The position numbers were made by a program, and so were the translations under genes. A stretch of DNA of 64,000 nt. It comes from an uncultured Nitrososphaeraceae archaeon (GTDB taxonomy: Archaea > Thermoproteota > Nitrososphaeria > Nitrososphaerales > Nitrososphaeraceae). The DNA lies in contig CAWGVG010000036.1 of assembly GCA_963825865.1 (NCBI GenBank), positions 64,001 to 128,000 of the forward strand. Direction: 5' to 3'. Positions 7,180 to 63,590 of the stretch are shown piece after piece (position 1 is the first letter of the stretch; the number at the start of each line of letters is the position of its first letter). The notes beneath the pieces are model-generated. The model searched no databases. It was not told the origin of the DNA and worked only from the letters and a program-made list of their open reading frames with translations.

Positions 7180-8040
7180 TCATCCTTCTATTGGTGGTGC
7201 AAACTTTATTCCAATCTCTACTAGCCGTGATTTTAGGGAAAGACCAGTATACACATCAATGGATTGTGCTCCACTTAGGATTCTATTCATTAGTTGCTCT
7301 GTCATTGTGCCGGTTGTAAGTATTTTGCATAGGTCTACAACTGTCAATTTTTGAGGTGGTGATGGGAACACGCTTAGGGCAGCCGCTTCAAAATCGTCGA
7401 TCTGTTTTTGTGAAAGTACACTTGTGAAAGTTTGTTGGCAAGATTGGAGAGTACTAACAGGTGCAAACTTTATTCCATTCCCTACTAGCCGTGATTTTAG
7501 GGAAAGACCAGTTTGCACATCAATGGATTGTGCTCCACTTAGGATTCTATTCATTAGTTGCTCTGTCATTGTGCCGGTTGTAAGTATTTTGCATAGGTCT
7601 ACAACTGTCAATTTTTGAGGTGGTGATGGGAACACGCTTAGGGCAGCCGCTTCAAAATCGTCGATCTGTTTTTGTGAAAGTACACTTGTGAAAGTTTGTT
7701 GGCAAGATTGGAGAGTGCTGCCGCCATTACCGCCGCCGCCATTACCGCCCCCTCCTCCTTTACCATGATCGCCTCCTCCTCCTCCTTTACCATGATCGCC
7801 ACCACCGCCATTACCGCCGCCCGGATGAACGCCACCTACCGCCACCGCCGCCCGGATGATCGCCACCGCCGCCCGGATGAACGCCGCCACCATTACCACC
7901 CTTACCATCGTTTTGTGCTCCTATGTTTGGTAAAGGAAATACTGATTGTGCTGATGCTGCTGCTAATGTTCCTCCTACTACTAATGTTGCTGCCATTAAG
8001 ATAGGCAGCTATTTCTGTTAATAGTACTTGTGTTGTTCAT
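7180..8040 (-). CDS. MNNT-family secreted protein with Gly/His-rich linker and two tandem helical domains (frameshifted)
   Basis: ATG AAC AAC ACA at 8040; signal MAATLVVGGTLAA; GGGGDH repeats; 88-aa domain present twice; cassette promoter upstream. Confidence 0.7.
7196..7717. repeat. Near-perfect 264-bp tandem duplication
   Basis: GTGCAAACTTTATTCCA at 7197 and 7461; translated copies differ only in a few residues near the C-terminal end. Confidence 0.95.
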
Positions 8041-8490
8041 AAGTTTTGTCACAAAGCATTACAATGATTATATATATTTGACTTGAGTCAGTCGATGCTG
8101 ATTTGTTTTATATTAATATCGAGAATATCAAATGAGGTGGAGTTATTCATTTATCTATTGTTGGTATATTATCGCAATCTGTTATTACTATATAATAGAT
8201 TATAAAGAATGTAATTGGAGAAAATATTATTTTATCTAAACATACAAATCAAACTGACAATTGTACCTTTTGGTTTAATAAATGGAATCTCGTTTTTTGT
8301 GATTTTATGAGTAATCATTGCAGTTAAAAGGATTTTATACAGTTAAGGACATCTGCCAAGAATGCATTCATACAAATGTAATTATAGATGCAATAAACTA
8401 ATTACACAATATAATACTATAATAATTTAATACAATCTGCTATCAAAAACCTTTTAGCTGTAGGTGTAGTACATTGTACTAGTCTGACGA
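8041..8490 (-). promoter_or_regulatory. Cassette upstream element, copy A (long form shared with copy D)
   Basis: tatatatttgacttgag; gagaatatcaaatgaggtggagttattcatttatctattg; distal part matches the reverse complement of 19150-19560. Confidence 0.8.
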
Positions 8491-8513
8491 GTAGTACTAT
8501 TGTTGCTACTACA

Positions 8514-8708
8514 ATGGATATGACTATAAAATTAGGAATCACTTTACCTAAATCAATAATACAGAAAATCGACAATAAGCGTGGCGATACTCCCAGGAGC
8601 AGGTATATTCGACGAGCAATTGAAAGTTGCCTTGGTGGTAATAATAAAGACATAGACAGTATTGACAACAAAGCGACAACATCCGTCAAAAAAAGTAGGA
8701 GGAAATAA
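8514..8708 (+). CDS. Ribbon-helix-helix (CopG-like) DNA-binding protein
   Basis: TIKLGITLPKSIIQKIDNKRGDTPRSRYIRRAIE; paralog at 40579-40782. Confidence 0.75.
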   Translation: MDMTIKLGITLPKSIIQKIDNKRGDTPRSRYIRRAIESCLGGNNKDIDSIDNKATTSVKKSRRK

Positions 8709-8712
8709 GAAA

Positions 8713-9129
8713 ATGAGCGGAATTGAAAGTAATATTATGCCATTTGTAGGTACTATTGGTTTTGGTGGTATAGCAGGTTTCTTGATTGGTTTCGCTTTAA
8801 AACGGATAATGAAAATACTAGCTGTAATAGCAGGAGTGTTTTTGCTGCTCTTATTGTATTTGGAATCTCAAGGAATAATGAACATACACTGGGATAAGCT
8901 GCAAGCAATATCAAATAGTATTCTATCAACAATTACCACAACGGCAACAACAAATGCAACGTCAACAAGTGGAGGAGGAGTAGGGTCAATTCAAGCTATT
9001 TTAGGCAATAACTCAACTGCAGCTGCTGCTACTCATATCTTACCTATAACGTCCACAATGGCAAACCTGGGTATTCCTTTGACTGGTAGTACGGCAATGG
9101 GATTTACAATTGGCCTATTAAAAGGTTAA
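8713..9129 (+). CDS. FUN14 family membrane protein
   Basis: GFGGIAGFLIGFALKRIMK...YLESQGIMNIHWDKL...GSTAMGFTIGLLKG. Confidence 0.8.
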   Translation: MSGIESNIMPFVGTIGFGGIAGFLIGFALKRIMKILAVIAGVFLLLLLYLESQGIMNIHWDKLQAISNSILSTITTTATTNATSTSGGGVGSIQAILGNNSTAAAATHILPITSTMANLGIPLTGSTAMGFTIGLLKG

Positions 9130-9194
9130 AGGGAAACTTACTGTGACTTCAAAATGAATTTATATAATAAATAAATTCAATCGAGTGCTTTTTT

Positions 9195-9737
9195 TTAAGG
9201 AAATGGTATTGGTAGAACGAAAGGTATTGTATCTTTTGCAGGATGATGAGTCTCTTTATTATGTATGCAGATAATAATATCACCACTACTACATTTGTTG
9301 TGATCAGCAACAGCAGCATTAGCAGTAGTAGTAGCATTTGCTTGTTGCAATAATACTACTGGAAATGTACCTGGCTTTAATGTAACAGTATTACCTGGAG
9401 ATTGTGCACCTGGAAATGAGCTTTGAGGCGATACATTATTGCCGCTTGCACTACTCGTAAAATCTTTTGCAAAAATAGTTCCAACAATGTCATTTATTAC
9501 ATCTTTTATAATTGTCAATGTAGTTGAGGGTTGTGGTGTTGGCAGTGGTATTTGAGTAGTAGTGGATATAATTTTCTCTTGTGAACAAGTTGTATTGTTG
9601 CCTGGATGAGGTACATATCAGGTTGTGTGGTTGTGGTGTAAATGATGTTGCTGCTCTGCTGATAATGATCCTGTTGTAAAGATAAGAACAACTACTATCA
9701 CTAATGCTAGATCTCTTATAGTAGTCGTGTTGTTCAT
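9195..9737 (-). CDS. MNNT/ICTHP-family protein with C-terminal beta-rich domain (frameshifted)
   Basis: ATG AAC AAC ACG at 9737; removing one base near 9611 gives PHNLICTHPGNNTTCSQEK, in frame with ORF 9195-9518. Confidence 0.6.
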
Positions 9738-9980
9738 GTATCCTCAAACAATATATCTATATATTTGGCTTGGGTAAGTAAGTGCTATTTGTTATTGCTG
9801 ACTTATTTAGCATATTTATTTAGAATATCAAATCAATTGAAATTATTCATTTAACTAATAATACTGTAATATGGCAATGTGTTATTACTAAATAACAAAG
9901 AGTAAAGAATATGATTTGAGAAATTAATATTTTATATGAATGTGCGATTCTATCTAGTAATTCTACCTTTTAATTTGATA
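9738..9980 (-). promoter_or_regulatory. Cassette upstream element, copy B (divergent)
   Basis: tatatatttggcttgggtaagtaagtgctatttgttattgctgactt...agaatatcaaatcaattgaaattattcatt. Confidence 0.75.
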
Positions 9981-10147
9981 GACGTGGTTATCATCATCAT
10001 CATTATTATTATTATCTACTTTAAGATAAAAACAATTCCAGTAATAGGAATCTGTAACTCTTCAATCGGTTCTGTTCATATTATTATGCATCGATCCAAA
10101 TTCAGTGGTTTATGAAAGAAAAAAAAGGTTTGGTAGTAAAAGAACTA

Positions 10148-10678
10148 TCACCATATACTGAATTTGTCGCCGTTGTGGGGATCTTTGTCGCCGCCGTTAT
10201 CGCCGCTGTCTCTGCCGCTGCTGCTGTCTCTGCCGCTACCGCCGTTGTCGTTACTGACAACAGAAGCTTCACTTCCGTCTTGTGAACAAGTTGCACTTGG
10301 ATGAGTACAGATAACATTTGAAGCCTCTTGTTCTAGTGTGTTATGTGACCCACGGACTTGCCCATTTTGTGTGGTTGCCTGGATGGTTTCTGTGTTACCG
10401 TTCCCGTAAATTCCTTTAGATTGTCTTACTTTCTTGTAGCTATTTTCGCCTCCTTTCATGTAGGTATCTTGTCTTTGTTTCTTGTAACCATCTTGTTTAT
10501 CTTTCTTGTAGCTATCGTCTCCTCTTTTCTTGTAGCTATCGTCTCCTCTTTTCTTATAGGAATCTTGCTTCCACGCAAATGCTGAATGGCCTGTTGTCAT
10601 TGCTGCGGATGTTCCGCCTACTACTAATGTTGCTGCTGTTAAGACAGCAACTATTGCTAGAATTCGTGTATTGTTCAT
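10148..10678 (-). CDS. MNNT/ICTHP-family secreted protein with D-S/G/T-Y-K-K repeats
   Basis: Signal peptide ending SAFA; 24-nt repeat encoding DSYKKRGD; GNTETIQ...GSHNTLEQEASNVICTHPSATC. Confidence 0.85.
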   Translation of the reverse strand: MNNTRILAIVAVLTAATLVVGGTSAAMTTGHSAFAWKQDSYKKRGDDSYKKRGDDSYKKDKQDGYKKQRQDTYMKGGENSYKKVRQSKGIYGNGNTETIQATTQNGQVRGSHNTLEQEASNVICTHPSATCSQDGSEASVVSNDNGGSGRDSSSGRDSGDNGGDKDPHNGDKFSIW

Positions 10679-10935
10679 ATGTATTTTCGTCACCAAGCAT
10701 TACGATCGTTCTATATATTTGACTTGAGTAAGTAAGTGCTATTTGTTATTGCTGACTTTATTACTATAATTATTGGGAATATCAAATGAGATGTAGTTAC
10801 ACATTAAATTATTATCAGTATTTTATGGGAATCACTTACTACCATACGATAGAGTGCAAAGAAAATGATTTGAGAAAATATTATTTCATTTGAACGTGCT
10901 ATTCAAACTGTGAATTGTACCCATTAATTTGGCAG
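10679..10935 (-). promoter_or_regulatory. Cassette upstream element, copy C
   Basis: tttcgtcaccaagcattacgat...ctatatatttgacttgagtaagtaagtgctatttgttattgctgact...gaatatcaaatgag. Confidence 0.85.
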
Positions 10936-12701: not shown

Positions 12702-13241
12702 ATGACAATTTTTATGGTACTCATAATAATAATAAGAATAATCAGCACTACCATTCTCAATCTTCCTCACCCTCTCCTGTTCGTTCCTCTACAAAATCAC
12801 GAATCAAATACTATCGATATAAAAACAGCAAAGGAGCCACTTTACAAAAGAATCCTTATTGTAGATGATAATGCTGATACCACTTTTACCTACAAGTTAG
12901 GTTTAGAAACGTATTATGAAGGTTATGAGGACGACAATGAAAACAAAATAAGATTTCAAGTATACACATACAATAACCCTTTAGTAGCGTTATCAGAATT
13001 CAAACTAAACTTTTACGATCTATTGGTAATTGATATTAACATGCCTTATATCAATGGCCTTGAATTTTGTCAAAAGATATCATAGTTAGATGTCAACCTT
13101 AGAGTTTGCTTTATGACTGCAGGAGAAGCAAATATTGAAGCGTTAAGAGAGGTATATCCAAATGTAAGTTTAGGATGTTTTATAAAAAAGCCAGTTTCAA
13201 TAGAATATTTGGTTAAAAGATTATCGGCAGAATTGGATTAA
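12702..13241 (+). pseudogene. Stand-alone response regulator (REC) with an in-frame TAG at 13083
   Basis: RILIVDD, DINMPYINGLEF, then the same frame continues VCFMTA...FIKKPV...ELD* past the TAG. Confidence 0.8.
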
Positions 13242-13500
13242 TGTAAGGTTGTAGCATGGTAGTAGCATTAAAAACATCATCATGATCTCATTATCTTAGC
13301 CTTAACATTGAGCATATGTGCTCCAATGTCTGTTAAAAATTATGTATCTATAAACAGTGCTCTTGACAAATCATAAGGTGTTTTTACTAAAGTAGTTTAG
13401 CGACTTTTGACACTACAATTTCTTGAAAGTCTAGCGTAATTGGTCAAGATAGATAGAGGCTAGACATAGAGAGTGACATAGAGGAGGAGATAAAAAAACA

Positions 13501-13881
13501 ATGAAAAATAATAGAATCTTGATAGTAGATGATGAAAACGATATTAATTTGCTATTCAAGATGGTTTTAGAGGATAATGGATTTAAAGTTGATACATTTA
13601 ACGATCCCCTAATAGCACTACAGAATTTTACAGCTGGTTCTTACGATTTACTACTTTTGGATATGTTAATGCCAAAGATGAATGGCTTTGAGTTATATCA
13701 AAAAATTAGAATGATAGATGATAAGGTTAAGATATGCTTTTTGACAGCAAGTGGAATAGACCATGACGAGTTAAAAAAGAGAGCAACTATTGCTAGCATA
13801 AATGATATTGAAAACTGTTTTATTATTAAGCCAATTGAAAATGAAGAGTTGATAAATAGAGTAAAGGCACAATTATCGTAG
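13501..13881 (+). CDS. Stand-alone response regulator (REC domain)
   Basis: RILIVDDE, LLDMLMPKMNGFEL, CFLTA, IIKPI. Confidence 0.93.
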   Translation: MKNNRILIVDDENDINLLFKMVLEDNGFKVDTFNDPLIALQNFTAGSYDLLLLDMLMPKMNGFELYQKIRMIDDKVKICFLTASGIDHDELKKRATIASINDIENCFIIKPIENEELINRVKAQLS

Positions 13882-19149: not shown

Positions 19150-19715
19150 TACTCATACAATCTACTACAATCACAGCAAAAAGGTTTTCGATAGCAGATT
19201 GTATAGAATTGTTATATTTTATAATATAACATATATTATGTACTTAAATTGGGTTAGTACGGAATGCATTCGTGGCGTAAATTCCTCAAAAAACTAACCA
19301 AAATTCAGCTGATATATCTAGCTTATCATTGTTTATGAATGTCAAATATTCCAAGCTTTTGTCCCAAATATTGTGAGTATTTTCAAAACACTTATAAAAC
19401 TACTTTCTAATTTTAAAGTCCGTTTAATTGGTAATGATTGTTCATAAAATCACAAGAAAGAGATATTCACCTATTAAATTGAAATGTACAATTGCTAGTC
19501 AGAATACGCGCATTCAAATAGAGTAATATTTTCTATACACTTTATTATATAGTAATAACAGATTGCTATAATAGACTAACAATAGATAAATTAGTAACTT
19601 CACCTCGTTTGATATCATCAATAACTATCTAAAATAGGTCAGCAATAACAAATAGCACTTACTTCCTCAAGTCAAATATATGGAACCATCGTAATGCCTG
19701 GTGACGAAAATCCAT
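19150..19715 (+). promoter_or_regulatory. Cassette upstream element, copy D (long form)
   Basis: caatagataaattagtaacttcacctcgtttgatatcatcaat...cttacttcctcaagtcaaatatatgg...ggtgacgaaaatccatATG. Confidence 0.85.
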
Positions 19716-20170
19716 ATGAACAATACAAAAACTGTATCAGCAATAGTTGCTGTCTTAATAGCAGGAGCATTAGTAGTAGGCGGAACATCCGCAGCAATGA
19801 CAACAGGACATTCAGCATTTGCATGGAAGCAAGACTCCTATAAGAAAAAAGGAGACAATAGCTACAAGAAAGATGGACAAGATGGTTACAAGAAACAAAG
19901 ACAAGATTCCTACAAGAAAGAGAAAGATACTTACATGAAAGGGGGAGAAAATTCCTACAAGAAAGGAAGACAAGCTAATGGAAATGGGTATGGGAACGGT
20001 AACACGGACACCATCCAGACAACCACACAAAACGGGAAAGTGAGTGGGTTCCATAACACACTAGAACAAGAAGCTTCAAATGTTATCTGCACTCATCCAG
20101 GTGAGGGAGTAGCAGGTGCAGATTCGGCACTGTTGAAGGATCAGCATCCTGTACCAATGAAAGCGGTTAG
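19716..20170 (+). CDS. MNNT/ICTHP-family secreted protein with YKK repeats, paralog of 10148-10678 (frameshift near 20130)
   Basis: Near-identical N-terminus to 10148-10678; alternative frame ends ASCTNESG*, like the family end CTSESG*. Confidence 0.85.
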
Positions 20171-20198
20171 AATAGTAGCTGTAGCTGTTACTATATGT

Positions 20199-20243
20199 TA
20201 AGGTAGTTTTTTTTACTACTACCACATCATTTTTTTTCTTTTT
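20199..20243 (+). terminator. Shared cassette terminator (GGTAGT...ACTACC stem plus T-tract)
   Basis: aaggtagttttttttactactaccacatcattttttttc; homologous copies near 10120, 45320, 46710, 51236 and 63060. Confidence 0.65.
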
Positions 20244-20984
20244 GCATTAATGTTATGATTAAAATAATTCTGATATCTGAGATAAATGTCCATCATCATC
20301 ATACATGGTTATTCACAAATGTTGCAATCCAGGATTTTGTGTTACTGATTATTAGTGACATGTATCATAATTACATATCATATTCATTTCAACCAAATAA
20401 GGCGGTTTCGACATTCCATTATTATTATTATTATTAATATTATGCTTAGAAACTATGTATAATCTGAAAAATAGTCTGATCTCCTGTGAATCCTTTCAAG
20501 TTATTAAATGGCCTTTTTTAGTACCAATTAATGCCTGTGTCAATTGTCATAGTTTTTCTATTATTGAAATCAGTTGTATCAATTTTTTTAAATACAGCAG
20601 TTTCAACAACAGCTATTGCTTCCTCATATTTCTTCGTCTTCTGCTAAGAGAAGAAGAAGAAGAAGAGTGACAAGATTAGTCTGTCTAGTACTTCATTAGT
20701 TGCCGAACCTGACGAGTGTGTGCCAACAACTGAAGGCACGGCGGGGGAGACTCGAATAGCAGCTACAGCATCTCTTACCATATGAGAAGGTAGTTCTTTA
20801 CTACTATCACCTTGTTTTCCTTTTTTTGTTTCTCAACGACAGCTAGGAACACAGGATAAAGAACTATCATTCAGATGCATCGCCTACAACATGCATAGAA
20901 TGACTAATCTTTTCCCATTAGTGAAGATTAGTATTGGGCCCTGTATTTCATACGGTTTATTTATAATCATTTGGTTGTAACAAA

Positions 20985-21192
20985 TAACACTAACAATAGA
21001 TAAATGAGCAACTTCACCTCATTTAATACTCCCAAAAAACTTGATATGTTACTCATCCTACTAGTCATGGAGAAGCATTAACAGTGCGTCCTCCAGTTGG
21101 AATCCTGTACAAATGAAGGCAGTGACGGATCAGCCATACCACAACCAGAGCACAAAGTAGATGAGTATCCACAACACTTCTTTATTTTTTAA
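20985..21192 (+). pseudogene. Internally deleted cassette copy E
   Basis: Distal promoter half (caatagataaatgagcaacttcacctcattt) fused directly to NLIC(T)HP and ESCTNEG coding remnants and a T-tract. Confidence 0.65.
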
Positions 21193-23253: not shown

Positions 23254-23557
23254 TACTAAGAAGATATTATGATAAGAATTCTATGAAATTATATTTCCCA
23301 TATCTTTTCCTGTCCATTTATTTTCTAGTCTCCCTAAATCTATTAAGTTTTAACCATTACATAGTATTTCCAAACGTAAATGAAATGAAATATATTAAAA
23401 AATTTTAAAACATTTTTTGGTAAATTAAGTAACAAACGATGCCTTGCAATAAAAAAATTTATGCGATTAAGTGTAGGGGCAGGTACGCGATGCATACGTC
23501 ACTGTGCTAGTTAGACCATATGCTTCAAATTGTTATTCTTTATATTCTAATAATATA

Positions 23558-23685
23558 CTAATAATAGGTAAATGAATAACTTCACCTCGTTTGATATCCT
23601 CAATAATTATATTAAATAAGTCAATAATAACAAATAGCACTTACTTCCTCAAGTCAAATATATAGAACTATCGTGACAAAAATAG
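23558..23685 (+). promoter_or_regulatory. Cassette upstream element, copy F
   Basis: taaatgaataacttcacctcgtttgatatcctcaat...cttacttcctcaagtcaaatatatag. Confidence 0.85.
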
Positions 23686-24214
23686 ATGAACAACACAACA
23701 ACAGCGCTAGCAATAGCAGTTGTTATCTTAACAGTAGTAACATTAGTATCAGTAGGAGGAGGAATATTAACAATAACACCATCAGCAGCATTTGATATGA
23801 AGAAAGGAAAAGGAGGTGTAGAAGGAGGAGGACCAAATGGAAATACCATCAACGGGCAGCAGAAAGGTCAACGCCAGCTCGTCTGCACTCCTCCTAGCAA
23901 CAATTGTGTCCAAGAGGGACTTACGTCTATAGATGCTCAGAGTCCACCACGACCCACACCAACACAACTCCACGTAACCCAACGGATAGGACCTAGCAAA
24001 ACAATTACACCTGGTCAAGTCGGCGTCGTAGCCGTTACGTGTAACCCCGGTGAAATAGCTACCGGTGGAGGGTATACAGCATCAGCGAACGTTATCGTAG
24101 CATCCTCCTTGGCAGGTAACAGTAATACAGCATGGCTTGTTAATGCATTTAATAATAGTACCCAAAATGGAATTCTAGGCAGCAACTGCAGAATGTGCAG
24201 GTCTATTACCCTGA
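23686..24214 (+). CDS. MNNT-family secreted protein with C-terminal C-x-PGE-x-ATGGG...W...AEC domain (frameshift near 24178)
   Basis: Signal ending AAF; NGNTINGQ...LVCTPPSNNCVQEG variant motif; alternative frame ends AATAECAGLLP*. Confidence 0.75.
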
Positions 24215-24667
24215 TTGAAAGCTACAATGCACGTGACCTCTCTCCTAAATAATGTAGCCGTCCTAGTAAGAGAGCATGTGTATAGAGATCTTTCAAATAC
24301 ATATCTGCTTCTCCGTCTGTCTAGATGAATTAGCAAACATAAGGCCAAAAGAGCACCTTATTAACATCTAAAATCACACCACCAACACCAAAGGTGTTTA
24401 TAATACAAGATTCTGATATTACGAATCATTAGTAACGTTCATATTCTTATTTTCCTTCTGTCAATAGTCTTATAAGAATCTCATCCTTTCTTACTTTGAG
24501 TTTATTGGATAATATGTTATATGCTCTGATGGTAAGAAATACACTTGATCTTATTTGGTATCAAATCTTTTATCGTATTTTATTTAAGTATGCATATAAA
24601 GAAGTTAATATGTTAGTTAATATGTTATACATTTTATTTATCTCCATTTTGTTATAATAAATTGTAT

Positions 24668-24807
24668 TATCTATAGATAAGTAAATAACTTCAATTGATT
24701 TGATATCATCAATATTTATACAAAATAAATCAGCAGTAAATTATATTATATAAATCAGCAGTAACTTCCTCAAGTCAAATATATAGATGAGATTGTATTG
24801 AGAATAT
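24668..24807 (+). promoter_or_regulatory. Cassette upstream element, copy G
   Basis: tagataagtaaataacttcaattgatttgatatcatcaat...aacttcctcaagtcaaatatatagatg. Confidence 0.8.
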
Positions 24808-25023
24808 ATGAACATGTTTCGAATAAATGAAGTAGAATATAGTAGTGTTATTAAAAAATTCAGAAGCATTAGTCGAGTGCACGAACACGACTTTGTATCA
24901 ATTATGAATGAAGGACAAAAATCAATTATTTGTTTAACATGTGGTTTTCTTTATTGTGGAAAGTGTGGTAAGTTAGTAACAATACATAATAAAAACTATT
25001 TACAGCATAATGTCTATAACTAA
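24808..25023 (+). CDS. Small His/Cys zinc-finger-like protein behind the cassette promoter
   Basis: HEHDF...CLTCGFLYCGKCGK; no signal peptide. Confidence 0.7.
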   Translation: MNMFRINEVEYSSVIKKFRSISRVHEHDFVSIMNEGQKSIICLTCGFLYCGKCGKLVTIHNKNYLQHNVYN

Positions 25024-30781: not shown

Positions 30782-31486
30782 TCACATAAGTTCGATCCTA
30801 GAAGACCTTTTTCTTCTTTTGCTAAATACAATTTCAAGTATTCCATTTCTATATGTCGATTTGCCTGATCTAAGGTCCACATTTGATGGAATGTCAATAA
30901 TACGATGATATTTTCCTCCTTGAGTATTAGTTGCACATATTTTTACATAACCGTCATAGGCTTTTACTTTTATATCCTTCTTATTGACAAGAGGCATTTC
31001 TACTACTATTTTCACCTCTTTAGATGATGTAATTATATCTACAAGAGGAGCCTCTCTTTTAGGTGATGTAACCTGAAATTCACTATTGTCATCACTATTG
31101 ATGCTATTATTATCATAATCATTACCATCACTACTAAGCGATCTGATATTATCAAACTCTTTTAATTGTGGTCTACTACTATTTGGTCCAACAATAGATA
31201 CAGCGTGATCATAAACTACTGGACGTACATTTCGCGGATTACCTCCCTTGGACTTTTTATACTTTCTTGGAAATTTTTTTGGTATATCTGAGTAGCGTGT
31301 GTATTCAAATTGCTGTTCTACGAACATTCTCTCTTCTATTTGCCATTCAATATCATGAAATTCTCTGAATATGTCATCTATAATACTACTACTACCACGC
31401 CAAACCCTTTCTGAAGCACTATGATTTTTAAAGAATAAGTCTAAACCAATCAGCAGCAACATCGTCATCGTCATCATCGTCATCAT
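30782..31486 (-). CDS. Divergent Hsp20 small heat-shock protein
   Basis: PLVDII...VVEMPLVNKKDIKV...KSTYRNGILEIVF. Confidence 0.8.
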   Translation of the reverse strand: MMTMMTMTMLLLIGLDLFFKNHSASERVWRGSSSIIDDIFREFHDIEWQIEERMFVEQQFEYTRYSDIPKKFPRKYKKSKGGNPRNVRPVVYDHAVSIVGPNSSRPQLKEFDNIRSLSSDGNDYDNNSINSDDNSEFQVTSPKREAPLVDIITSSKEVKIVVEMPLVNKKDIKVKAYDGYVKICATNTQGGKYHRIIDIPSNVDLRSGKSTYRNGILEIVFSKRRKRSSRIELM

Positions 31487-32014
31487 TATATGGTAGAATA
31501 TTCCAAAAGCTCAAATCCATAACCACCTAAATAATAAAATTTCGCCGTTTTTAAATTGTTTGATTGTCATTTTAGTAGTAAATGGTCAAATAGTTGCTTT
31601 TCGTTTTTAATTATAACTAAATCTGTATGGATACAAGGATCTGCTACAAGTATACAAAAGAAAATAATCTATTTATAAATTTCATTAGATAAAAAGCATA
31701 ACAATGCACGAGATTTCTGACAGACTTTTGATGCGCTATATAGCGCATAGATGTAAAATTTTTGTTACATTTAACTTGGGGGTAACTTCAATGTCTTTAC
31801 CTGAGGTTAGAATATAAGATTTTTTTGGTCGTTACTATCACGAACTATCTTTTTTCTTGTAGTATATGATGAAAATATTGACGATCTATATTAAAATTAA
31901 CATATTTCCTATTTTGCCTACCGCCTTTCTCTTGAAATAGCGAAAAGGACACAAAAATATTTTATTTTTTTTATAAGTCAAATTTATATGAGAATATATT
32001 TCTAGGCATAAGAA

Positions 32015-32206
32015 ATGTCATTCATAATGCAGCTATTTAAAAGAAAAGGAAAAGAAGAAGAAAAAGTTGATAACAATAATAGAAGGGTTGTCAAATGTAA
32101 AGAATGCGGGATGCACTTTGAAAGTAAAGACAGATTAAATACACATGACAAAAAAGCTCATTCAGGCAGAGGAGAAAGGAAGAAAATGAAGAAAGAGAGA
32201 TTTTGA
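32015..32206 (+). CDS. C2H2-type zinc-finger protein
   Basis: CKECGMHFESKDRLNTHDKKAH. Confidence 0.8.
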   Translation: MSFIMQLFKRKGKEEEKVDNNNRRVVKCKECGMHFESKDRLNTHDKKAHSGRGERKKMKKERF

Positions 32207-38224: not shown

Positions 38225-38248
38225 TTTCTTAAATCTCCATGGAAAATA

Positions 38249-41913: not shown

Positions 41914-44129
41914 TTGAAAAAATCTCATGGAAGCAGTGGTGGCGATGAATCATCATCATCACGGAAAATTCAATTAAGAGTGGCTGAAGCAAAACATAGA
42001 GATGTAGGTAAACGCAGAGCACGAATTGACCCTGAAGCCATGGATAGACTTGGGATTGAGGCAGGTGAAGTTATTGAACTAGTTGGCAAACGCACGACTG
42101 CTGTAACTGCCTGGCCTGCTGATGAAGAAGAAAAGGAGACTGATATTATTCGAATGGATGGCCAGACAAGGAAGAATGCCGGTGTTGGTCTAAATGATCA
42201 GCTGGTGGTAAGGAAGATTGAATCAAAAACTGCAAAAGTTGTGGTTTTAATGCCTTTGGTAAGTAGCGAGCATTTCTGTTGATAAAGAATTCTGCGAATT
42301 TGTAAAAAATAGGCTCAGAGGTTTTCCAGTTAACGAAGGTGATGAAATATCGGTAGTAATTTTAGGAAATCCAATGGATTTTCGTATTGAAAGAGTAACG
42401 CCACATGCAATTGTAAAGATCGAACGCTCAACCAAGTTGAATATAATGTCAGAAACTGTTGTTGATAAAAAACCTCGAGTGACTTATGAGGAGATTGGTG
42501 GATTAAAAGATCAGATTAAGCGACTCAGAGAAATAGTCGAATTACCTTTAAGACATCCTGAGGTTTTTGCAAGGCTTGGTATTGAACCTCACAGTGGTAT
42601 ACTCATGTACGGTTCTCCTGGCTGTGGAAAGACACTGATTGCAAAGGCGCTTGCATCCGAATCAGAAGCAAATTTCTATATTATAAATGGTCCAGAAATT
42701 GTGAACAAGTACTACGGCGAAACAGAAGCTAGATTGCGGGATATTTTTAAAGAAGCGAGGGATTCTGCACCCAGTATCATATTTATTGATGAAATTGATG
42801 CCATAGCTCCAAAGAGAGAAGAAGCCTTTGGTGATGTTGAGAAAAGGGTTGTAGCACAATTGCTTGCGCTTATGGATGGAATGTCAGAACGTGGAAATGT
42901 GATAGTGCTTGGGGCGACTAATAGGGCTGAAAGCATTGATCCTGCACTTAGACGTCCAGGTAGATTTGACAGGGAGATTGAAATTGGTGTTCCAAACGTT
43001 GAAGGAAGGCTGGAAATTCTTCAAATCCATACCAGGGGAATGCCTCTTGCCGAAGACATCGATCTAACAGAATTATCGTCTGGGCTGTATGGATATACTG
43101 GTGCAGACATCAAGGCTTTATGCAGAGAAGCGGCAATGAAAGCCCTCAGGCGCTACTTGCCAGAGATCGATTTAGAAGGAGACAAAGTTTCACCAGATAC
43201 GCTCGAGACAATTGAGATTACGAACAGAGATTTCAAAGAAGGGATGAAGGAGATTATTCCAACTGCAATGAGAGAATTTTACGTTGAAGTTGCACGAGTT
43301 AAATGGAATGATGTGGGCGGGTTATATGATGCAAAACGAACGTTGTATGACAATCTTATTACTGCTATCAAAGAGCCTGAAAGTTTCGTCAAAATGGGTA
43401 TCAAACCGCCAAGAGGAGCGCTATTATTTGGTCCTCCTGGCTGTCGGCAAGACCTTGATTGCAAAATCTCTGGCAACTGAGAGCAATGCTAACATTATAG
43501 TGGTAAGGGGCCCTGAAGTACTATCTAAATGGGTAGGAGAATCTGAAAAGGCAATACGCGAAATTTTTAGAAAGGCAAAGGCCTCTTCGCCATGCGTTGT
43601 AGTATTTGACGAACTTGACTCTCTTGCTAGACCTAGAGGGGGTGAAGACGATATGTCAGGGAATGAAAGGGTACTTTCCCAGATTTTAACAGAAATGGAT
43701 GATTCAGGCAGTGCAGAAGTTATAGTGATTGGTATTACAAATAGACCTGACCTTATAGATACATCTATGCTTCGCCCAGGGAGGCTAGACTTGATTTTGT
43801 ATATTGGTCCACCTGATGATAAAGGCCGGCTTGAAATTATGAATATATTGACTTCTCCCATGCCACTAGCAAATGACGTTAATTTAAAAGAAATTTCTCT
43901 ATTATCTACAAAAGGATTCAGCGGTGCAGACCTTGTTGCACTATGCAGAGAGGCAGCTGTTAACGCAATGCGAGGAAAATCAGATATCATCAGTAACTCT
44001 GACTTTGGTAAAGCGTTGCATATGGTAAAGCCCTCTATAACCAAGGATGTAGAAGACTGGTATGAATCTATGAAAAAAAGTGTTACCTATGCAATGCCAA
44101 AACAGATAGACAAGATATTTTATGGATAG
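41914..44129 (+). CDS. cdc48: CDC48/VCP family AAA+ ATPase (frameshifts near 42270 and 43445)
   Basis: N-domain RVAEA..RDVG; D1 [22 protein letters not shown]; D2 GPPG.GKT, FDELD, RPGRLD. Confidence 0.95.
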
Positions 44130-44363: not shown

Positions 44364-44578
44364 TTATGGAATGCAGACTAGCTGTGACGAATTAGTTGCA
44401 GAGCCAACTTTATCTGAGGTTGTCGATGGTGGAGTGTTCCCTTCCCCTTCGACGGGTCTGTTTGGAAACTCAAATAGAGTAGTTGTATGTGGACATGGTG
44501 CTCCTGGATCTCCTTTATCTCCTTTCACTCCCTGGAGTCCCTGGTCGCCTTTATCCCCATAGCTGTTGTATTGTTCAT
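44364..44578 (-). pseudogene. Cassette copy H cargo: MNNTTA start fused out of frame to a collagen-like fragment
   Basis: ATG AAC AAT ACA ACA GCT at 44578; another frame gives GDKGDQGLQGVKGDKGDPGAPCPH...LVCIP*. Confidence 0.6.
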
Positions 44579-44720
44579 ATATTTTCATTACAATGTCATC
44601 TATATATCTGACTTGAGGAAGTTAATGCTGTTTGTTATAACTGACTTATCTAGTATAATTATTGAGAATATCCAAGCAGGTGATGTTATTCACTCATCTA
44701 TTGTCATTAGATATTCTTGA
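44579..44720 (-). promoter_or_regulatory. Cassette upstream element, copy H
   Basis: cattacaatgtcatctatatatctgacttgaggaagttaatgctgtttgttat...tgacttatctag...attgagaatatc. Confidence 0.85.
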
Positions 44721-45398
44721 GAACAAAATTATAAACGAAATATCCTATCGAATCTTTGCTTGGTGTAGATTGTAAGATTTAGATCAATTCATTTTTTAAT
44801 GCTTTAGACTAGAGGATAACACAATTTGCAGCACATTCCACCGAACCTATATCAATATAACTGTCCGTTTGTCTGCACTATGTGATTAATAAATTAGTAA
44901 ACTACGGCCATGTAATTTTTAATATGCAAAGCTGCCAATAATAGTCAGGATCACATCATTTTTAAGAGAAGATATCTTTTTCAGGCTTATAATCCAACTA
45001 TTATTTATATTGCATCATACACTTTAAATGAACAAATACCTGAATATTATTTTTATAAATAATAGAGGAGATATATATATTCAGCACATAGATAGATAGA
45101 TGGAGAGACAGGCAACACAGACACACATACTTCTACACAAAAATAATATACACATGTATATGCACATGTGCAGTAAAGTACTCTGACTAGTGGTAGTTGT
45201 GGAGGAGGGAGGAAGAAGAAGACAAAGATTAAACCGAGTAAAAGTATTTTTGTAGATTATAAATTTTTTATTTTGTTTTATTATTTTTTATTTAAGTGCG
45301 CACAGATATATGTGAAAAAGGAAAGAAAAAATGTTGTGGTAGTAGTAATAAATTACTACCTTACCTGTAGTAACAGTCGCTGCTGTTGTGCTATTCTA

Positions 45399-45680
45399 CT
45401 AACCGCTTTCACTAGTACAGGTTGCGTTTTCGCCAGGGTGTGTGCAGATAACGTTTTCAGCTTCTTGGTCTAGTGTGTTATCAAACCCACTTACTGACCC
45501 TTTTTGTTTGTTTGCCTGGATGGTAACTGTGTTACCATTCTCATTTCCATTATCTCTTCCCTTGTCTCCTTTCTTTTGATAATAAGCAGATGCAGAGTGT
45601 GTTGCTGCGAATGTTACTCCTACTACTAATGTTGCCGCTGTTAAGACAGCAACTATTGCTAGAGTTCTTGTGTTGTTCAT
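45399..45680 (-). CDS. MNNT/ICTHP-family small secreted protein
   Basis: Signal peptide; NGNTVTIQANKQKGSVSGFDNTLDQEAENVICTHPGENATCTSESG. Confidence 0.88.
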   Translation of the reverse strand: MNNTRTLAIVAVLTAATLVVGVTFAATHSASAYYQKKGDKGRDNGNENGNTVTIQANKQKGSVSGFDNTLDQEAENVICTHPGENATCTSESG

Positions 45681-45920
45681 TTAGATTTCGTCACCAACAT
45701 TATGATTTCATCTGTATATTTGACTTGAGGAAGCTAATGCTGTTTTATCTAATATAATTTAGTGCTTACTTATCTAGCATAAGTATTGAGGATATCAAAT
45801 GACATGAAATTACTCATTTATCTATTGATAGTAGATATTCACTATAATTAAATAATAACAAATAAACGCACCACTAACATAGAGTTTTTCTTTTATACTT
45901 TTAAATAAAACACACACTGG
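45681..45920 (-). promoter_or_regulatory. Cassette upstream element, copy I
   Basis: Core motif plus distal caccactaacatagagtttttc...ttttaaataaaacac shared with copies J and L. Confidence 0.85.
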
Positions 45921-46775
45921 TCATCATATCAACACATGATGCAAAATTGTTATAAAATTATATCCTTTAATGGTTAAAGTTATAGTTGAACCCTGGATAT
46001 ATGTTCTTAAGAGTATTGTAAGTCAGTCAATTGGGAATTACGGTAAGCTATTACTTGTCTTTTTGACAAGTTCATCTTATCGTTATAGCTTTAGCTTGCT
46101 ACAGTTTAGTCAGAGGAAGGGAAGAGAGAGTTGTACGACCTTCTAGATAATAATCCTGACATTGTCATATTTTATATGACGCCTTTTTTCGTTGAATATA
46201 TATATATGTAACTAAAAAAATAATACAACACAATAAGAATCCAAACAACATCTTATAAGGACCTAAAAAGACAACATGGTAGTAAAAATGGTAATATGTA
46301 GTTGTTGATACGGTGGAGTAGGTAAACAAACAACACGGAGAGAAAGTGGATTTGATGACGCTCATTCGAGCAAGATGTTCAAAACGTGATATGTACTCAC
46401 CCAAGCGCAGCCCTGTAGGTGAAACATTAACAATACTAATAATACTAGTCACACTAATGACAACAATATCATGATAATGTCTTGCAGGTAATCGTTATGA
46501 TGATGTAAAAATGTCACTCAGGCCTATAGCAATGTTACTCCCCCCACAGAAGAGACAGGCATTGTACCTTGGAAGATCTCCATAGAGTGATGCCCCTAGG
46601 TCCTCATCATATATATGCATACACCCATGTGCGCACAGCAGAGCAGATGTGCCTAGTATCTGTGGAAGAAGAAGCAGACCAAGATAATCAAGCAGGTAAC
46701 AGCTATAAAATAAAAAAAGGTTGTGGTAGTAGTAAAGAACTACCTTCTCATGTAGTAATCGCTACAGCTGCTATT

Positions 46776-47081
46776 CTAGCCGCTTTCTTCTACACACGTG
46801 TCATCTGGATGAGTGCAGATAACATTTGAAGCTTCTTGTTCTAGTGTGTTATCAAATCCACTTACTGACCCTCTTTGTTTGTTTGCCTGGATGGTAACTG
46901 TGTTACCATTTTCATTTCCATTGTCTCTTCCGTCTTTTCCCTTGTTATCTTTTCTATCTTTTCCATTGTCTTTCTTGTAAGCAAATGCTGATGGTGTAGA
47001 TGTTGCTGCGAATGTTACTCCTACTACTAATGTTGCCGCTATTAAGATAGCAACTATTGCTAGAGTTCTTGTGTTGTTCAT
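46776..47081 (-). CDS. MNNT/ICTHP-family small secreted protein
   Basis: 96 of 101 residues identical to 63130-63435. Confidence 0.88.
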   Translation of the reverse strand: MNNTRTLAIVAILIAATLVVGVTFAATSTPSAFAYKKDNGKDRKDNKGKDGRDNGNENGNTVTIQANKQRGSVSGFDNTLEQEASNVICTHPDDTCVEESG

Positions 47082-47312
47082 TTAGATTTCGTCATCAAGC
47101 ATTACGATATCATCTGTATATTTGACTTCAAGAAATTAATGCTGTTTGTTATTACTGACTTATCTAACATAATTATTGAGAATATCAAATGACGTGAATT
47201 TATTCATTTATCTATTGATAGTAGATATTCACTATAATTAAATAATAACAAATAAACGCACCACTAACATAGAGTTTTTCTTTTGTACTTTTAAATAAAA
47301 CGCACACTAGCA
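47082..47312 (-). promoter_or_regulatory. Cassette upstream element, copy J
   Basis: Core motif plus distal extension nearly identical to 45810-45918. Confidence 0.85.
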
Positions 47313-48080: not shown

Positions 48081-48416
48081 TCACACTGTTTCTGGCTCCG
48101 TTACTTGTAGATCATTTAAGACTTCTGATACTCCTGAGACATTCCATGCTTCTTGACCTGCCAAACCTCTTTCTTCATAAGTTTTGACAAGGCCTTTCAA
48201 AGTAACAGCTGAATTGTTAACATATACTTCGATGTGTGAAGAATCAATCTTGTTGTTTTTTCTCAGGTTTTCATTAATCTTATTTTTTAATTCGTCATCA
48301 CCTTTACGTCCAGCTATATGGGATGAATCATATGGTTCGTTGCCCCAATAGTAGCCAGAATAAGAATCTTCAGGAGGTTCTTTTCTTGGTTCTACTCCGT
48401 TACGCTTTTCTTTCAT
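48081..48416 (-). CDS. BON domain protein
   Basis: DDELKNKI...IDSSHIEVYVNNSAVTLKGLV...AWNVSGVSEVLNDL. Confidence 0.85.
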   Translation of the reverse strand: MKEKRNGVEPRKEPPEDSYSGYYWGNEPYDSSHIAGRKGDDELKNKINENLRKNNKIDSSHIEVYVNNSAVTLKGLVKTYEERGLAGQEAWNVSGVSEVLNDLQVTEPETV

Positions 48417-51235: not shown

Positions 51236-51480
51236 AAAAAAAGGTTGTGGTAGTAAATTAACTACCTTGTTGTGCATCTTCTTCGGGGCTGTGGCCATCC
51301 TCATTATTGGTGCTGCCGTCATCATTACTGGTGTTATCAGTAGGATTAACGTGGTTCTTGATAGTAATGAAGATTGCAGCTTCATTAATGCATGAGTGTT
51401 TGATTGGACTTTTTTTTACCATCAGTGTCACAATTTGTCTTCTACTTCATGATGGCGGTAGAGTTGTTACCATTTACTGT
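51236..51480 (-). pseudogene. Decayed cassette-family remnant with the shared terminator
   Basis: aaaaaaggttgtggtagtaaattaactacctt terminator; coding remnant VNGNNST...NC...HSCINE. Confidence 0.45.
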
Positions 51481-59976: not shown

Positions 59977-60573
59977 CTATTTCTGTATTGTTAGTCTTTC
60001 GTCTCCAGAAATCAAGCCCGCTTGTTGTAGACAATCGAATAGGGCTCTTGCGTGACCTTCAGTAATATCACCGCTTAAGACAAGTCCAATTAGTATGAGT
60101 TCGATTTGCAGATCTGATACTGTGCCGGTGTTGATTATTTTGCATACGTCTTCAATTGAGGATACCTTGAAACCCAGTTTTACGAATGCTTGAATAAAAG
60201 CTTTTTGCTCATCCAAGGTAAGCTTTGTTGTGAAACAGTCTGCGCACGGATCTTTCACTGCGCCATTATTGACTGCGCCGTTATTGACTGCGCCGTTTTC
60301 TCTTACACATGATGCATTGTCACCTGGATGTGTGCATATCACGTTTTGACATTCTTGTGCTAATGAGTTATCAAATCCGCTTTCTGTCGCGTCTTGTTTG
60401 CATGCCTGTAAGGTAACTGTGTTACCATCTCTACTATTTTCTTGTGATCCTCCTCTATTCTTCTTTTGATAAGCAAGTGCTGTTTGTGTTGTTGCTGTTG
60501 CTGCAAATGTTCCTACTACTAATGTTGCTGCCATAAAGATAGCAACTATAGCTAAAGTTTTTGTGTTGTTCAT
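59977..60573 (-). CDS. MNNT/ICTHP-family secreted protein with C-terminal 4-Cys helical domain
   Basis: Signal; GNTVTLQACKQ...GFDNSLAQECQNVICTHPGDNASC; NGAVN repeats; CADCF...VCKII...FDCL. Confidence 0.88.
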   Translation of the reverse strand: MNNTKTLAIVAIFMAATLVVGTFAATATTQTALAYQKKNRGGSQENSRDGNTVTLQACKQDATESGFDNSLAQECQNVICTHPGDNASCVRENGAVNNGAVNNGAVKDPCADCFTTKLTLDEQKAFIQAFVKLGFKVSSIEDVCKIINTGTVSDLQIELILIGLVLSGDITEGHARALFDCLQQAGLISGDERLTIQK

Positions 60574-60810
60574 ACGTTACCAAGCAATATGATTTCATCT
60601 ATATATTTGACTTGAGGAAGTTAATGCTGTTTTATTTAGTATGATTTAGTGCTAACTTATCTAGCATAACTATTGAGAATATCAAATGACGTGAAATTAA
60701 TCATTTATATATTGGTAGTATATATTCACTGTAATTAAATAATAATAAATAAACCCACCACTAACATCGAGCTTTCTTTTATGTTTTTAAATAAAACACA
60801 CGCTAGCAGT
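60574..60810 (-). promoter_or_regulatory. Cassette upstream element, copy L
   Basis: catctatatatttgacttgaggaagttaatgctg...attgagaatatcaaatgacgtgaaatt...caccactaacat. Confidence 0.85.
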
Positions 60811-61895: not shown

Positions 61896-61899
61896 GACG

Positions 61900-62414
61900 A
61901 TTAAACCAGCATTCAAACCACCTGGTTCAATACATACGACCAGAGAAATTCTAGAATAGGAATTGATACGGCGTCTATAATGACTTTGCAAGGAAGGTTG
62001 AAACTTCCTACTAGAATAGGAGGGTATCAGAAAGCAAGGTTTGATAGGGTTCGTGGCCAATGCGATTTAATATACAGAAATGGTGTTTTCTACCTGATTG
62101 TCGTAGTAGATATGCACCAGAAAAGTCAGAAGAATATGATCCTGTTGGTGCTTTAGGCGTAGACTTGGGAATTAAAAATATAGCAGTAGATAGCGATAGA
62201 CAGATATTCGAAAGTAAAAAAGTTGAGAAAGCAAGACAGCATTATAACAAACAAAGATCAATATTACAGAAGGTAGGGACTAAATCAGCAGAGAAAACTA
62301 AAGAAAATATCTGGTAAGGAAAGACGTTTTAAGAAAGATACTAACCATTTTGAATGCCTTCAATGTGGATATAAGGAAATGGCGGATTATATTGCAGCAA
62401 AGAATATTGCTCGC
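61900..62414 (+). mobile_element. tnpB: IS200/IS605 TnpB remnant (frameshifted, internally deleted)
   Basis: RGQCDLIYRNGVFYL, LGVDLGIKNIAVDSD (RuvC-I), KERRFKKDTNH joined to FECLQCGY..ADYIAAKNI (RuvC-III). Confidence 0.85.
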
Positions 62415-62494
62415 CTAGGTTACAATCATTATTATCGTCTTATCTTTATCTATTTCTATTTCTTCTTCTATGGCTTCTTCTTTCTGTGATAACG

Positions 62495-62750
62495 CTACAT
62501 TCTTGTGATCACATGTTGTCTCCCTTGTTGTTTTTTTTGAGAATAATCTTTCCTTGTATGCTTTGTGAATTTCAAAACTTGGGGCAACAGCTTTCTTAAC
62601 CACGACTCAGATATACCTCTGATAGTAAAAGATTCAACAATCATTTTTCTAAATTGTATATTATCTATATTCAGATCTGAAGCTAATTGTTTTATTTCTT
62701 CTATCTGTTGGATGAATGTCTTTTTTGCATCTATGTAGATATTCTGTAGT
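62495..62750 (-). pseudogene. Fragment of a hypothetical protein family (second fragment near 57050-57130)
   Basis: QIEEIKQLASDLNIDNIQF resembles QIREARQLASDLNVDEIQL. Confidence 0.45.
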
Positions 62751-62756
62751 CCGTAA

Positions 62757-62895
62757 ACTGTTGACAAGTTAAAAGAAGTTATTGGTTTAAAGATAAGAGG
62801 GTTGAACAAATCAGGGCAATATTGACGTTAATAGCAATGTAGGAATCACAAGATAGTAAAAGAAAAACAACTAGGCAGCAATAAGAAGATATAAA
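62757..62895 (+). pseudogene. 3-prime remnant of an Lrp/AsnC paralog of 22993-23253
   Basis: gttgacaagttaaaagaagttatt...gataagagg...gaacaaatcag..caatattgacgttaatagcaatg matches 23137-23218. Confidence 0.7.
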
Positions 62896-63129
62896 TTTCT
62901 AAATGTTTAGTTGCTTCTAAGTCTGCTTTTAAAACGGTAGTGATTTATCTCGGGGTGGTTGACTTAGGCTTTCAATCCCATCTTCATCAGTTTCTAACAA
63001 GACATGCGTCCCTGTTAATCTTGCTTTATTTGATTTTGCGAAAAGATATGAAAAAAGAAAAGAAAAAAAAGTTGTGGTAGTAGTAGTAAAGAACTACCTT
63101 ACCATGTATTAAGAGCTACAGCTGTTATT

Positions 63130-63435
63130 CTAACCGCTTTCTTCTACACACGTGTCATCTGGATGAGTGCAGATAACATTTTGTGCTTCTTGTTCTAGTG
63201 AGTTATCAAATCCACTTACTGACCCTCTTTGTTTGTTTGCCTGGATGGTGACTGTGTTACCATTTTCATTTCTATTATCTCTTCCGTCTTTTCCCTTGTT
63301 ATCCTTTCTGTCTTTTCCATTGTCTTTCTTGTAGGCAAATGCTGATGGTGTAGATGTTGCTGCGAACGTTACTCCTACTACTAATGTTGCCGCTGTTAAG
63401 ACAGCAACTATTGCTAGAGTTCTTGTGTTGTTCAT
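63130..63435 (-). CDS. MNNT/ICTHP-family small secreted protein
   Basis: Near-duplicate of 46776-47081; shared terminator at 63061-63100. Confidence 0.88.
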   Translation of the reverse strand: MNNTRTLAIVAVLTAATLVVGVTFAATSTPSAFAYKKDNGKDRKDNKGKDGRDNRNENGNTVTIQANKQRGSVSGFDNSLEQEAQNVICTHPDDTCVEESG

Positions 63436-63590
63436 TTAGATTTCGTCACAAGCATTACAATGTCATCTATATATTTGACTTGAGGAAGTTAATGCTGTTT
63501 GTTATTACTGACTTGTCTAGCATAGCTATTGAGGATATCAAATGACGTGAAATTACTCATTTATCTATCATCAGTTATATTCTATAATTA
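63436..63590 (-). promoter_or_regulatory. Cassette upstream element, copy M
   Basis: ttagatttcgtcacaagcattacaatgtcatctatatatttgacttgaggaagttaatgctg...gatatcaaatgacgtgaaattactcatttatcta. Confidence 0.88.

Follow-up and report, generated by a model that had tools for sequence, protein, structure and literature searches.

A multi-copy upstream element as the probable promoter region of an expanded family of small secreted-protein genes in a Nitrososphaeraceae archaeon

Introduction

What is the long non-coding block that recurs in front of small genes along one 64-kb stretch of an archaeal genome: a promoter, a mobile element, a switch or an RNA? The stretch, here called the window, comprises 64,000 nt of an uncultured Nitrososphaeraceae archaeon (GenBank GCA_963825865.1, contig CAWGVG010000036.1, positions 64,001 to 128,000; G000:C36:64001-128000 in our numbering) with 34.4% G+C, and window coordinates below count from its first letter. 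An initial annotation had reported eleven copies of the block directly upstream of start codons, followed by variable secreted cargo and a shared terminator, and had offered two readings: a co-regulated regulon spread by duplication of whole transcription units, or a non-autonomous mobile promoter/signal-peptide cassette. The block is, in our view, probably the promoter (5' control) region of an expanded, fast-turnover and undescribed gene family encoding small secreted proteins; judging from its sequence, its likely function is that of a promoter for a co-regulated secretome.

The ammonia-oxidising archaea of soils rank among the major nitrifiers and, to our knowledge, next to nothing is known of their transcriptional regulation or of the products that they secrete. 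A literature search at the level of result listings found no published description of this protein family, of the element or of such a layout in an archaeon.

Results

Copies in the window, the genome and soil metagenomes

When 260 nt upstream of each reported start codon (ATGs at 8040, 9737, 10678, 19716, 23686, 24808, 44578, 45680, 47081, 60573 and 63435) were extracted and aligned, one non-coding block of ~170 nt, in gene sense, was found to precede all eleven. The 22-nt core given in the initial annotation, searched with up to 3 mismatches, matched the window 10 times as against 0 matches in 100 dinucleotide-preserving shuffles, and these matches sit 20-33 nt upstream of 10 of the 11 ATGs; at ATG 47081 the core is more diverged, yet the whole block aligns with the other copies. 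Core search, shuffles and alignment agree, and the eleven reported copies stand. The MN(NT) start described with them is equally apparent, the open reading frames (ORFs) beginning with MNNT in 10 cases and with MNMF in one.

The assembly (4.98 Mb in 62 contigs, 35.5% G+C, 82% complete, 2.8% contamination) yielded 88 matches to a profile built from the 11 window copies, and 96 matches, on 32 of the 62 contigs, to a profile built from 56 full units, a unit being the element with the gene behind it. Eighteen of the 96 lie on the window's contig, and 62 have a neighbouring copy within 5 kb. Consensus and unit statistics below refer to these 56 full units unless another set is named.

The element is not confined to this assembly. 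Among 80 independent soil-metagenome contigs, picked by protein similarity alone, 71 carry it, and 94 of the 97 element matches on them lie on the gene's strand and end at the gene start, so that the orientation and spacing seen in the window hold elsewhere. It is also covered by contigs of three DNA runs from three studies. Since three DNA runs and 71 of 80 metagenome contigs carry the element, its copies are no artefact of assembly. In one RNA library (X20), contigs fall on the coding parts of two units (45487-45538, 45603-45667 and 46847-46912), which is weak support because such libraries can contain DNA; none falls on the upstream elements, where DNA runs X1 and X3 have cover, a gap that comes from a single study and carries no weight.

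Promoter-like anatomy of the block

Both the consensus of the 56 units and that of a second set of 52 copies, drawn from the window and the metagenome contigs, consist of conserved boxes parted by variable columns: AATAG-TAAATGA-TAA, TTTGATAT, ATAGTTAT, a direct repeat ATAA-TCAGCA-TAA and an almost invariant CTCAAGTCAAATATA. Each element has the direct repeat once, about one and a half times or twice, and a 25-nt tandem repeat at 24716-24765 was recovered independently by a repeat-finding tool. Three classes of distance, 52, 65 and 77 nt, separate the TTTGATA box (box B) from the TATA-type box, with 4, 6 and 23 of the 56 units respectively, 13 units being unassignable and 10 having other distances.

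In 52 of the 56 units, 22-35 nt separate the end of the CAAATATA box from the ATG, with modes at 24, 28 and 34 nt. Upstream of 1019 long ORFs of the same genome, TATA-like hexamers peak at -35 to -26, a range that includes the short-spacer copies; as in an archaeal core promoter, an A/T-rich box stands at the genome-typical distance from the start codon. Archaeal transcription starts ~25 nt downstream of the TATA centre and, from the position of the box, short-spacer units would therefore be leaderless and long-spacer units would carry a leader of ~10 nt. Conservation continues into the gene, the first 12 coding bases reading ATGAACAACACA in 25 of the 56 units and one-base variants of it in most others.

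Between TATA box and ATG, the long-spacer copies keep the stretch (A/G)TGACGAAATCT (47082-47105, 63436-63458 and 10679-10700 in the window, and their equivalents elsewhere). In some copies it gives rise to a mini-ORF of five codons, the stop of which overlaps the main ATG; other copies have it in the frame of the main ORF, with TTG or GTG starts.

One exported protein family behind most copies

What the element precedes was classified for the 75 genome copies with at least 330 nt of downstream sequence. A signal peptide and a GNT..ICTHP domain share one frame in 30 copies, are parted by a frameshift or stop in 13, and are reduced to the domain in 5. A signal peptide is followed by another body of at least 60 aa in 5 copies and by a short ORF in 2; other ORFs of at least 60 aa stand behind 8 copies and nothing behind 12. 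One protein family, intact or broken, thus accounts for 48 of 75 copies, and the earlier description of the cargo as variable was overstated, although at least six other exported bodies do occur. Among them are Ser/Thr/Pro-rich proteins of 319-415 aa, a repeat protein with CVNDQPCQ motifs, a propeller-like fragment, a Cys-rich MNNATTIR.. type and a 123-aa protein. Nearly all of them start with MNN followed by a hydrophobic stretch, and none matches a Pfam family above cut-off.

Neither Pfam nor NCBIfam gave a match above cut-off for 6 cargos of the window or for 8 other proteins, seven of them cargos, and the ESM Atlas returned solely unnamed Nitrososphaerota clusters. The main cargo protein has 330 relatives at E ≤ 0.001 in a large protein collection, described as 'hypothetical' where named at all, one being labelled Nitrososphaeraceae archaeon. 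Within the domain the Cys of ICTHP is invariant and a second Cys a few residues further on is nearly so. AlphaFold2 models reached a mean pLDDT (predicted local distance difference test) of 46 with 18 sequences and 52.7 with 124, resolving a signal-peptide helix and three short strands only; they are unfit for a fold search, as matches from such models are meaningless. The linker between signal peptide and domain consists of K/D/Y-rich repeats of DSYKK type (in the genes at 10148-10678 and 19716-20201) and, in the 101-aa copies, is encoded by 24-nt tandem DNA repeats (46921-46968 and 63275-63322).

Some units share a 3' module as well. Terminators, located by regular expression and profile, gave 27 genome matches to this module, 20 of them on the same strand and 56-1039 nt downstream of an element; the hairpin with its T-tract is confined to a subfamily. 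The initial annotation had noted a GGTAGT..ACTACC stem and T-tract at six loci: five are exact (20202, 45338, 46725, 51249 and 63076), while the sixth, behind the gene starting at 10678, is degenerate. Some 45 nt from the TAG stop to the hairpin are also conserved, as TAG AATAGCAGC.. TTACTACATG.. (45361-45398, 46745-46775 and 63099-63129), so these copies have a common 3' untranslated region (UTR). Several protein-profile matches read through the TAG that precedes it.

Conservation, duplication and exchange of segments

Pairwise nucleotide identity was compared among 53 intact units (23 from the genome and 30 from metagenome contigs; 1378 pairs). Median identity is 0.72 in the upstream core, 0.86 at codon positions 1+2 and 0.80 at position 3 of the signal peptide, and 0.72 and 0.62 at the same positions of the conserved domain; linkers and tails cannot be aligned across these units. 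The statement that the core is better conserved than the cargo is correct only in part. Upstream identity keeps within 0.69-0.75 both in pairs with a third-position domain identity of 0.44 and in pairs with 0.85. Four-fold sites with a shared amino acid are 0.82 identical in the signal peptide and 0.66 identical in the domain, where pooled codon usage alone predicts 0.55 and 0.36 respectively.

Across the 56 units, homology reaches from around -150 to the end of the signal peptide, and roughly one pair in three stays homologous as far as +280. Similarities in the distal half, the proximal half and the 5' coding sequence (CDS) are almost uncorrelated with one another (Spearman 0.08, 0.03 and 0.18; 1539 pairs), and the units at 47081 and 63435 provide an example of a mosaic, with 5' CDS 0.97 identical and distal halves 0.64. 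This pattern clearly points to segment exchange between copies by recombination. In 23 pairs of recent duplicates, identity varies little (0.8-0.9) between -240 and +60, from which we conclude that whole units duplicate. Together with homology that extends through the signal peptide, the 3' module behind 20 units and the many neighbours within 5 kb, these data bear out the duplication half of the regulon reading first proposed.

The proximal box in other genera

A BLAST-type search of 41 related genomes with the element found it in G000, the present assembly, alone, apart from two weak partial matches. An exact search of species representatives for a 19-nt core retrieved one other Nitrososphaeraceae metagenome-assembled genome (MAG), with both matches at contig ends, and three chance bacterial matches; short-read MAGs probably lose such repeats. 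By DNA search of the genomes compared, the full element is restricted to this genus-level lineage. Matches to the family protein extend to 19 of 81 genomes, the unpublished G050 included; no other result given here depends on G050.

The core box is the older part. In the family Nitrososphaeraceae, CCTCAANNCAAATATA was matched 43 times, in 19 of 151 genomes (15 matches in G000 and 28 in 18 others), and the reversed control once. Of 23 loci examined outside G000, 12, in genera g7, g11, g14 and g17, have an ORF with an N-terminal hydrophobic signal 22-33 nt downstream of it; the N-termini are of MNHT.., MNNT.. or MKAIKHTNLK.. type. Two more loci lie at the end of a contig or are ambiguous. Genes for other small secreted proteins are also preceded by the core box CCTCAA-NN-CAAATATA in at least four further Nitrososphaeraceae genera. 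In G064 (g14), six paralogs of a diverged version of the protein have their own shared distal upstream sequence and the same proximal box. As the same box precedes other small-secreted-protein genes in several genera, the proximal promoter would seem to be old and under selection.

Two further observations concern these relatives. In genus g17 (L158-L162, L180), a conserved small secreted protein starting MKAIKHTNLKTLTVLAA.. lies 23 nt behind the same CCTCAA-NN-CAAATATA box in five genomes. In G061 (g9; L135-L143, L037), ten paralogs of a different small secreted protein (..NQAISQANACGNGELPLNVGCQN..) have an upstream block of their own in common (..AAATATCAGATTTAAG..), unlike the one described here; with unrelated sequence, the 'shared head' layout recurs in this sister genus.

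Discussion

A proposed promoter at the head of a recombining gene family

In the model that we favour, ~110 nt of upstream boxes would provide sites for one or more transcription regulators, and CTCAAGTCAAATATA, ending 22-35 nt before the ATG, would combine a factor-B recognition element with the TATA box, giving a messenger that is leaderless or has a leader of ~10 nt. ATGAACAACACA and the Sec-type signal peptide, conserved at the DNA level, lead into a variable mature part, usually a K/D-rich linker followed by a ~35-aa GNT..Q..ICTHP..C domain, and ~20 units add the shared 3' UTR, hairpin and T-tract. The family would grow by duplication of whole units, often in tandem, with copies exchanging segments by homologous recombination or gene conversion and many of them decaying, and similarity would be kept by selection on the boxes and by recombination between copies. 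The proximal promoter would be old and selected, the distal boxes lineage-specific.

Several points weigh against this model. Of the 75 classified copies, 12 are followed by no ORF and 13 are interrupted by a frameshift or stop, and some of these apparent pseudogenes may be indel errors, as the assembly is 82% complete and many ordinary genes of the window look split; among metagenome copies, a set selected by protein match, 3 of 64 are frameshifted. Nine of the 23 cross-genus motif matches have no following ORF and are apparently intragenic. The long-spacer copies place their TATA box ~10 nt farther from the ATG than the genome-wide peak. Because identity in the recent pairs is nearly flat, part of the conservation of the distal region reflects recent ancestry. 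The transcription start, the regulator and the co-expression of units are, finally, putative.

Mobility, switching and RNA as alternatives

The proposal of a mobile cassette, in which the 5' module moves by a non-autonomous mechanism and lands before unrelated genes, was compared with the survey of putative mobile promoters by Nijveen, Matus-Garcia and van Passel (2012, PMC3575422), where at least 80% identity over at least 50 nt within -150..-50 was required in front of non-similar CDSs. Of 1540 unit pairs, 397 reach that upstream identity, 92 of them without CDS similarity, which places these 92 within the operational definition (PMC3575422), and 58 with similarity in the first 100 nt only. 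Unlike the pairs of that survey, from which paralogs were excluded, most pairs here are plain paralogs (247 of the 397), and several of the seemingly unrelated cargos among the remainder are deletions or decayed copies; families there are mostly pairs (PMC3575422), compared with ~96 members here, and mobility independent of the gene is unsupported. At least six unrelated mature bodies, and one ORF without a signal peptide, do stand behind the element. That ORF, the zinc-ribbon frame at 24808, was considered as a case of promoter capture and rejected: it is the sole cargo without a signal peptide, an orphan with 2 near-identical database matches, and may not be a real gene.

Insertion sequences are abundant in this genome, with 118 DDE_Tnp_1, 22 integrase (tyrosine-recombinase) and 6 TnpB-type matches, and they may explain its unusual size at 82% completeness. 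Within 10 kb of a DDE transposase match lie 47 of the 96 element copies, where random placement gives a mean of 32.4, and within 10 kb of an integrase match lie 17, where it gives 7.2. We read this enrichment as residence in plastic regions; the copies are clustered and not independent. At 3 kb the counts no longer exceed random placement, with 13 of 96 for transposases (mean 12.2) and 1 for integrases (mean 2.3). Three units were examined for terminal inverted repeats and flanking target duplications, and none were found. Upstream, homology starts are spread over -190..-100 with no sharp end, and downstream it ends at +90 or +280; orientation and distance to the ATG are fixed, and no plasmid or phage match was obtained. 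A non-autonomous cassette moving by transposition is accordingly unsupported, and we judge this explanation unlikely. The same applies to a miniature inverted-repeat transposable element (MITE). Correia elements are named among the non-autonomous transposons or MITEs with outward promoters (PMC3575422), and the block is likewise short, multi-copy, non-coding and presumably able to drive neighbouring genes, but unlike them it has no terminal inverted repeats, target duplications or defined ends, and it keeps a fixed polarity and start-codon spacing.

Phase or antigenic variation, with the block acting as a recombination or slippage site that toggles surface-protein genes in the manner of Mycoplasma vsp/vlp or Neisseria opa/pilC, appears quite improbable. 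It would fit the conserved upstream region and signal peptide on varying exported bodies, the occurrence of both orientations within clusters, the 13 of 75 copies that are out of frame and the evident exchange of segments between copies. Against it, the consensus of promoter and 5' CDS contains no homopolymer or short tandem repeat tract, and frameshift positions are scattered without a hot spot. The window holds no recombinase gene, the single copy of 96 within 3 kb of an integrase match falls below the random mean of 2.3, and each copy comes with a complete TATA box of its own.

That the block is transcribed as an RNA element, be it a long and structured leader, a riboswitch or a small RNA, is highly improbable, since a length of ~130-170 nt and conservation equal to or above that of neighbouring coding DNA are set against 0 pairs predicted by RNAalifold over 52 diverged copies, no Rfam match in the window, a most invariant part that is a TATA-type box at promoter distance from the ATG, and length changes by whole repeat units.

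Relation to bacterial gene families

The family seems to be a large variant, apparently undescribed in archaea, of a gene-family layout known from bacteria. The erp (ospE/ospF/elp) lipoprotein paralogs of Borrelia burgdorferi combine a conserved 'upstream homology box' and signal peptide with divergent bodies, recombine between copies and have common regulators. The units described here likewise place a long shared upstream region and signal peptide on divergent exported bodies. They differ in having an archaeal TATA-type promoter and probably leaderless mRNA where the erp promoter is bacterial, in being chromosomal where erp genes reside on prophage-like plasmids, in encoding a Sec-type rather than a lipoprotein signal, and in numbering ~96 copies.

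As summarised by Tsuru and Kobayashi (2008, PMC2568036), Staphylococcus aureus ssl and spl, Mycoplasma penetrans p35 and Mycoplasma bovis vsp are tandem secreted-protein paralogs in which the upstream region, the signal-peptide-coding 5' end or both are conserved, and this conserved sequence is proposed as a homologous recombination site that diversifies the family. The conserved upstream region and signal-peptide-coding end are shared by the present units; those families are small clusters in host-associated bacteria, unlike ours, and vsp genes are switched through site-specific inversion by a neighbouring recombinase, of which we see no sign here. As in erp, ssl, spl and p35, conserved upstream and signal-peptide DNA sits on divergent mature parts and, from the pattern of identity, copies appear to recombine.

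A candidate promoter class

The genome has ~14 factor-B loci (TFIIB-repeat; 29 repeat matches) and one gene for the TATA-binding protein, which makes a dedicated factor-B paralog a plausible, putative reader of the extended box. More tentatively, we raise the possibility that CCTCAA-NN-CAAATATA and the upstream AGCA..TAA repeats form a separate promoter class, read by one of these paralogs or by a dedicated activator, that runs a 'secretome regulon' across at least five Nitrososphaeraceae genera, the promoter and signal-peptide head doubling as a recombination platform repeatedly re-attached to new exported bodies. If true, archaea would have here an equivalent of the variable surface-protein families of bacteria, and one amplified to nearly a hundred copies.

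For the promoter-headed family itself, ~96 copies of one long control region would amount to a ready-made regulon in which its regulator or factor-B paralog could be sought. The protein family is an abundant unnamed one, with 330 public relatives, common in soil metagenomes and matched by RNA-library contigs, and the unit could lend itself as a native promoter and secretion signal to genetic work in the group. It also suggests that the 'shared head, variable body' pattern of bacterial surface-protein families arises in archaea too.

Units and neighbouring genes of the window

Across the clusters of the window, strand runs are three on the minus, four on the plus and five on the minus strand. 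Three of the eleven ORFs (8040, 9737 and 44578) are truncated or frameshifted, stopping after 14-39 aa. In the first minus-strand cluster, unit 1 (7180..8215) has its element at 8041-8215 and its ATG at 8040; its ORF has 14 aa, signal-peptide codons resume in another frame, and a 242-aa ORF at 7180-7908 is probably its displaced body. Unit 2 (9195..9912; element 9738-9912, ATG 9737) has a 39-aa ORF (MNNTTTIRDLALV...) and a broken, Cys-rich variant body. Unit 3 (10100..10865; element 10679-10865, CDS 10148-10678) encodes 176 aa, with signal peptide, DSYKK-type repeats and GNT..ICTHP domain, followed by the degenerate stem and a T-tract.

On the plus strand, unit 4 (19531..20245; element 19531-19715, CDS 19716-20201, 161 aa) is followed by the hairpin GGTAGT..ACTACC from 20202 and then T8. 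Decayed remnants lie at 20751..21038 on the same strand: 20751-20832 matches a piece of the 3' module, and 20954-21038 the 5' part of an element. Unit 5 (23501..24252; element 23501-23685, CDS 23686-24252) encodes 188 aa, with a homologous signal peptide and a different, longer mature body. In unit 6 (24623..25023), the element at 24623-24807, with its 25-nt tandem repeat, precedes the orphan ORF at 24808-25023 (71 aa), which has a CxxC...CxxC motif.

The remaining units are on the minus strand. Unit 7 (44500..44763; element 44579-44763, ATG 44578) is decayed, with a 17-aa ORF. Unit 8 (45315..45865; element 45681-45865, CDS 45399-45680, 93 aa) ends in the conserved 3' UTR, a hairpin at 45338-45360 and a T-tract, and unit 9 (46700..47266; element 47082-47266, CDS 46776-47081, 101 aa) in a hairpin at 46725-44 and T7. 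A solitary piece of the 3' module, with hairpin and T-tract and without an element, lies at 51236..51268. Of the decayed pieces first reported, those near 21000 and 51300 correspond to these remnants, while near 700 there was no match. Unit 10 (59977..60758; element 60574-60758, CDS 59977-60573) encodes 198 aa, with the family domain and an extra C-terminal domain, and unit 11 (63050..63620; element 63436-63620, CDS 63130-63435, 101 aa) is followed by a hairpin at 63076-98 and T8.

Ordinary genes of the window also look split, which matters for the count of truly broken family copies. A CDC48-type AAA ATPase is spread over three ORFs (41914-42279, 42374-43477 and 43284-44126) and a factor-B-like gene over two (1907-2659 and 2677-3060); these may be real pseudogenes or assembly indel errors. 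A factor-B fragment is found at 2767-2991. Stress- or envelope-type genes neighbour the units (5295-5729, 12702-13878, 30785-33066, 36061-38596 and 48084-48416), namely MgtC, two response-regulator receivers, two Hsp20, a P-type ATPase with an ArsR-type regulator, and a BON-domain protein, and they offer hints of the conditions under which the units may be expressed.

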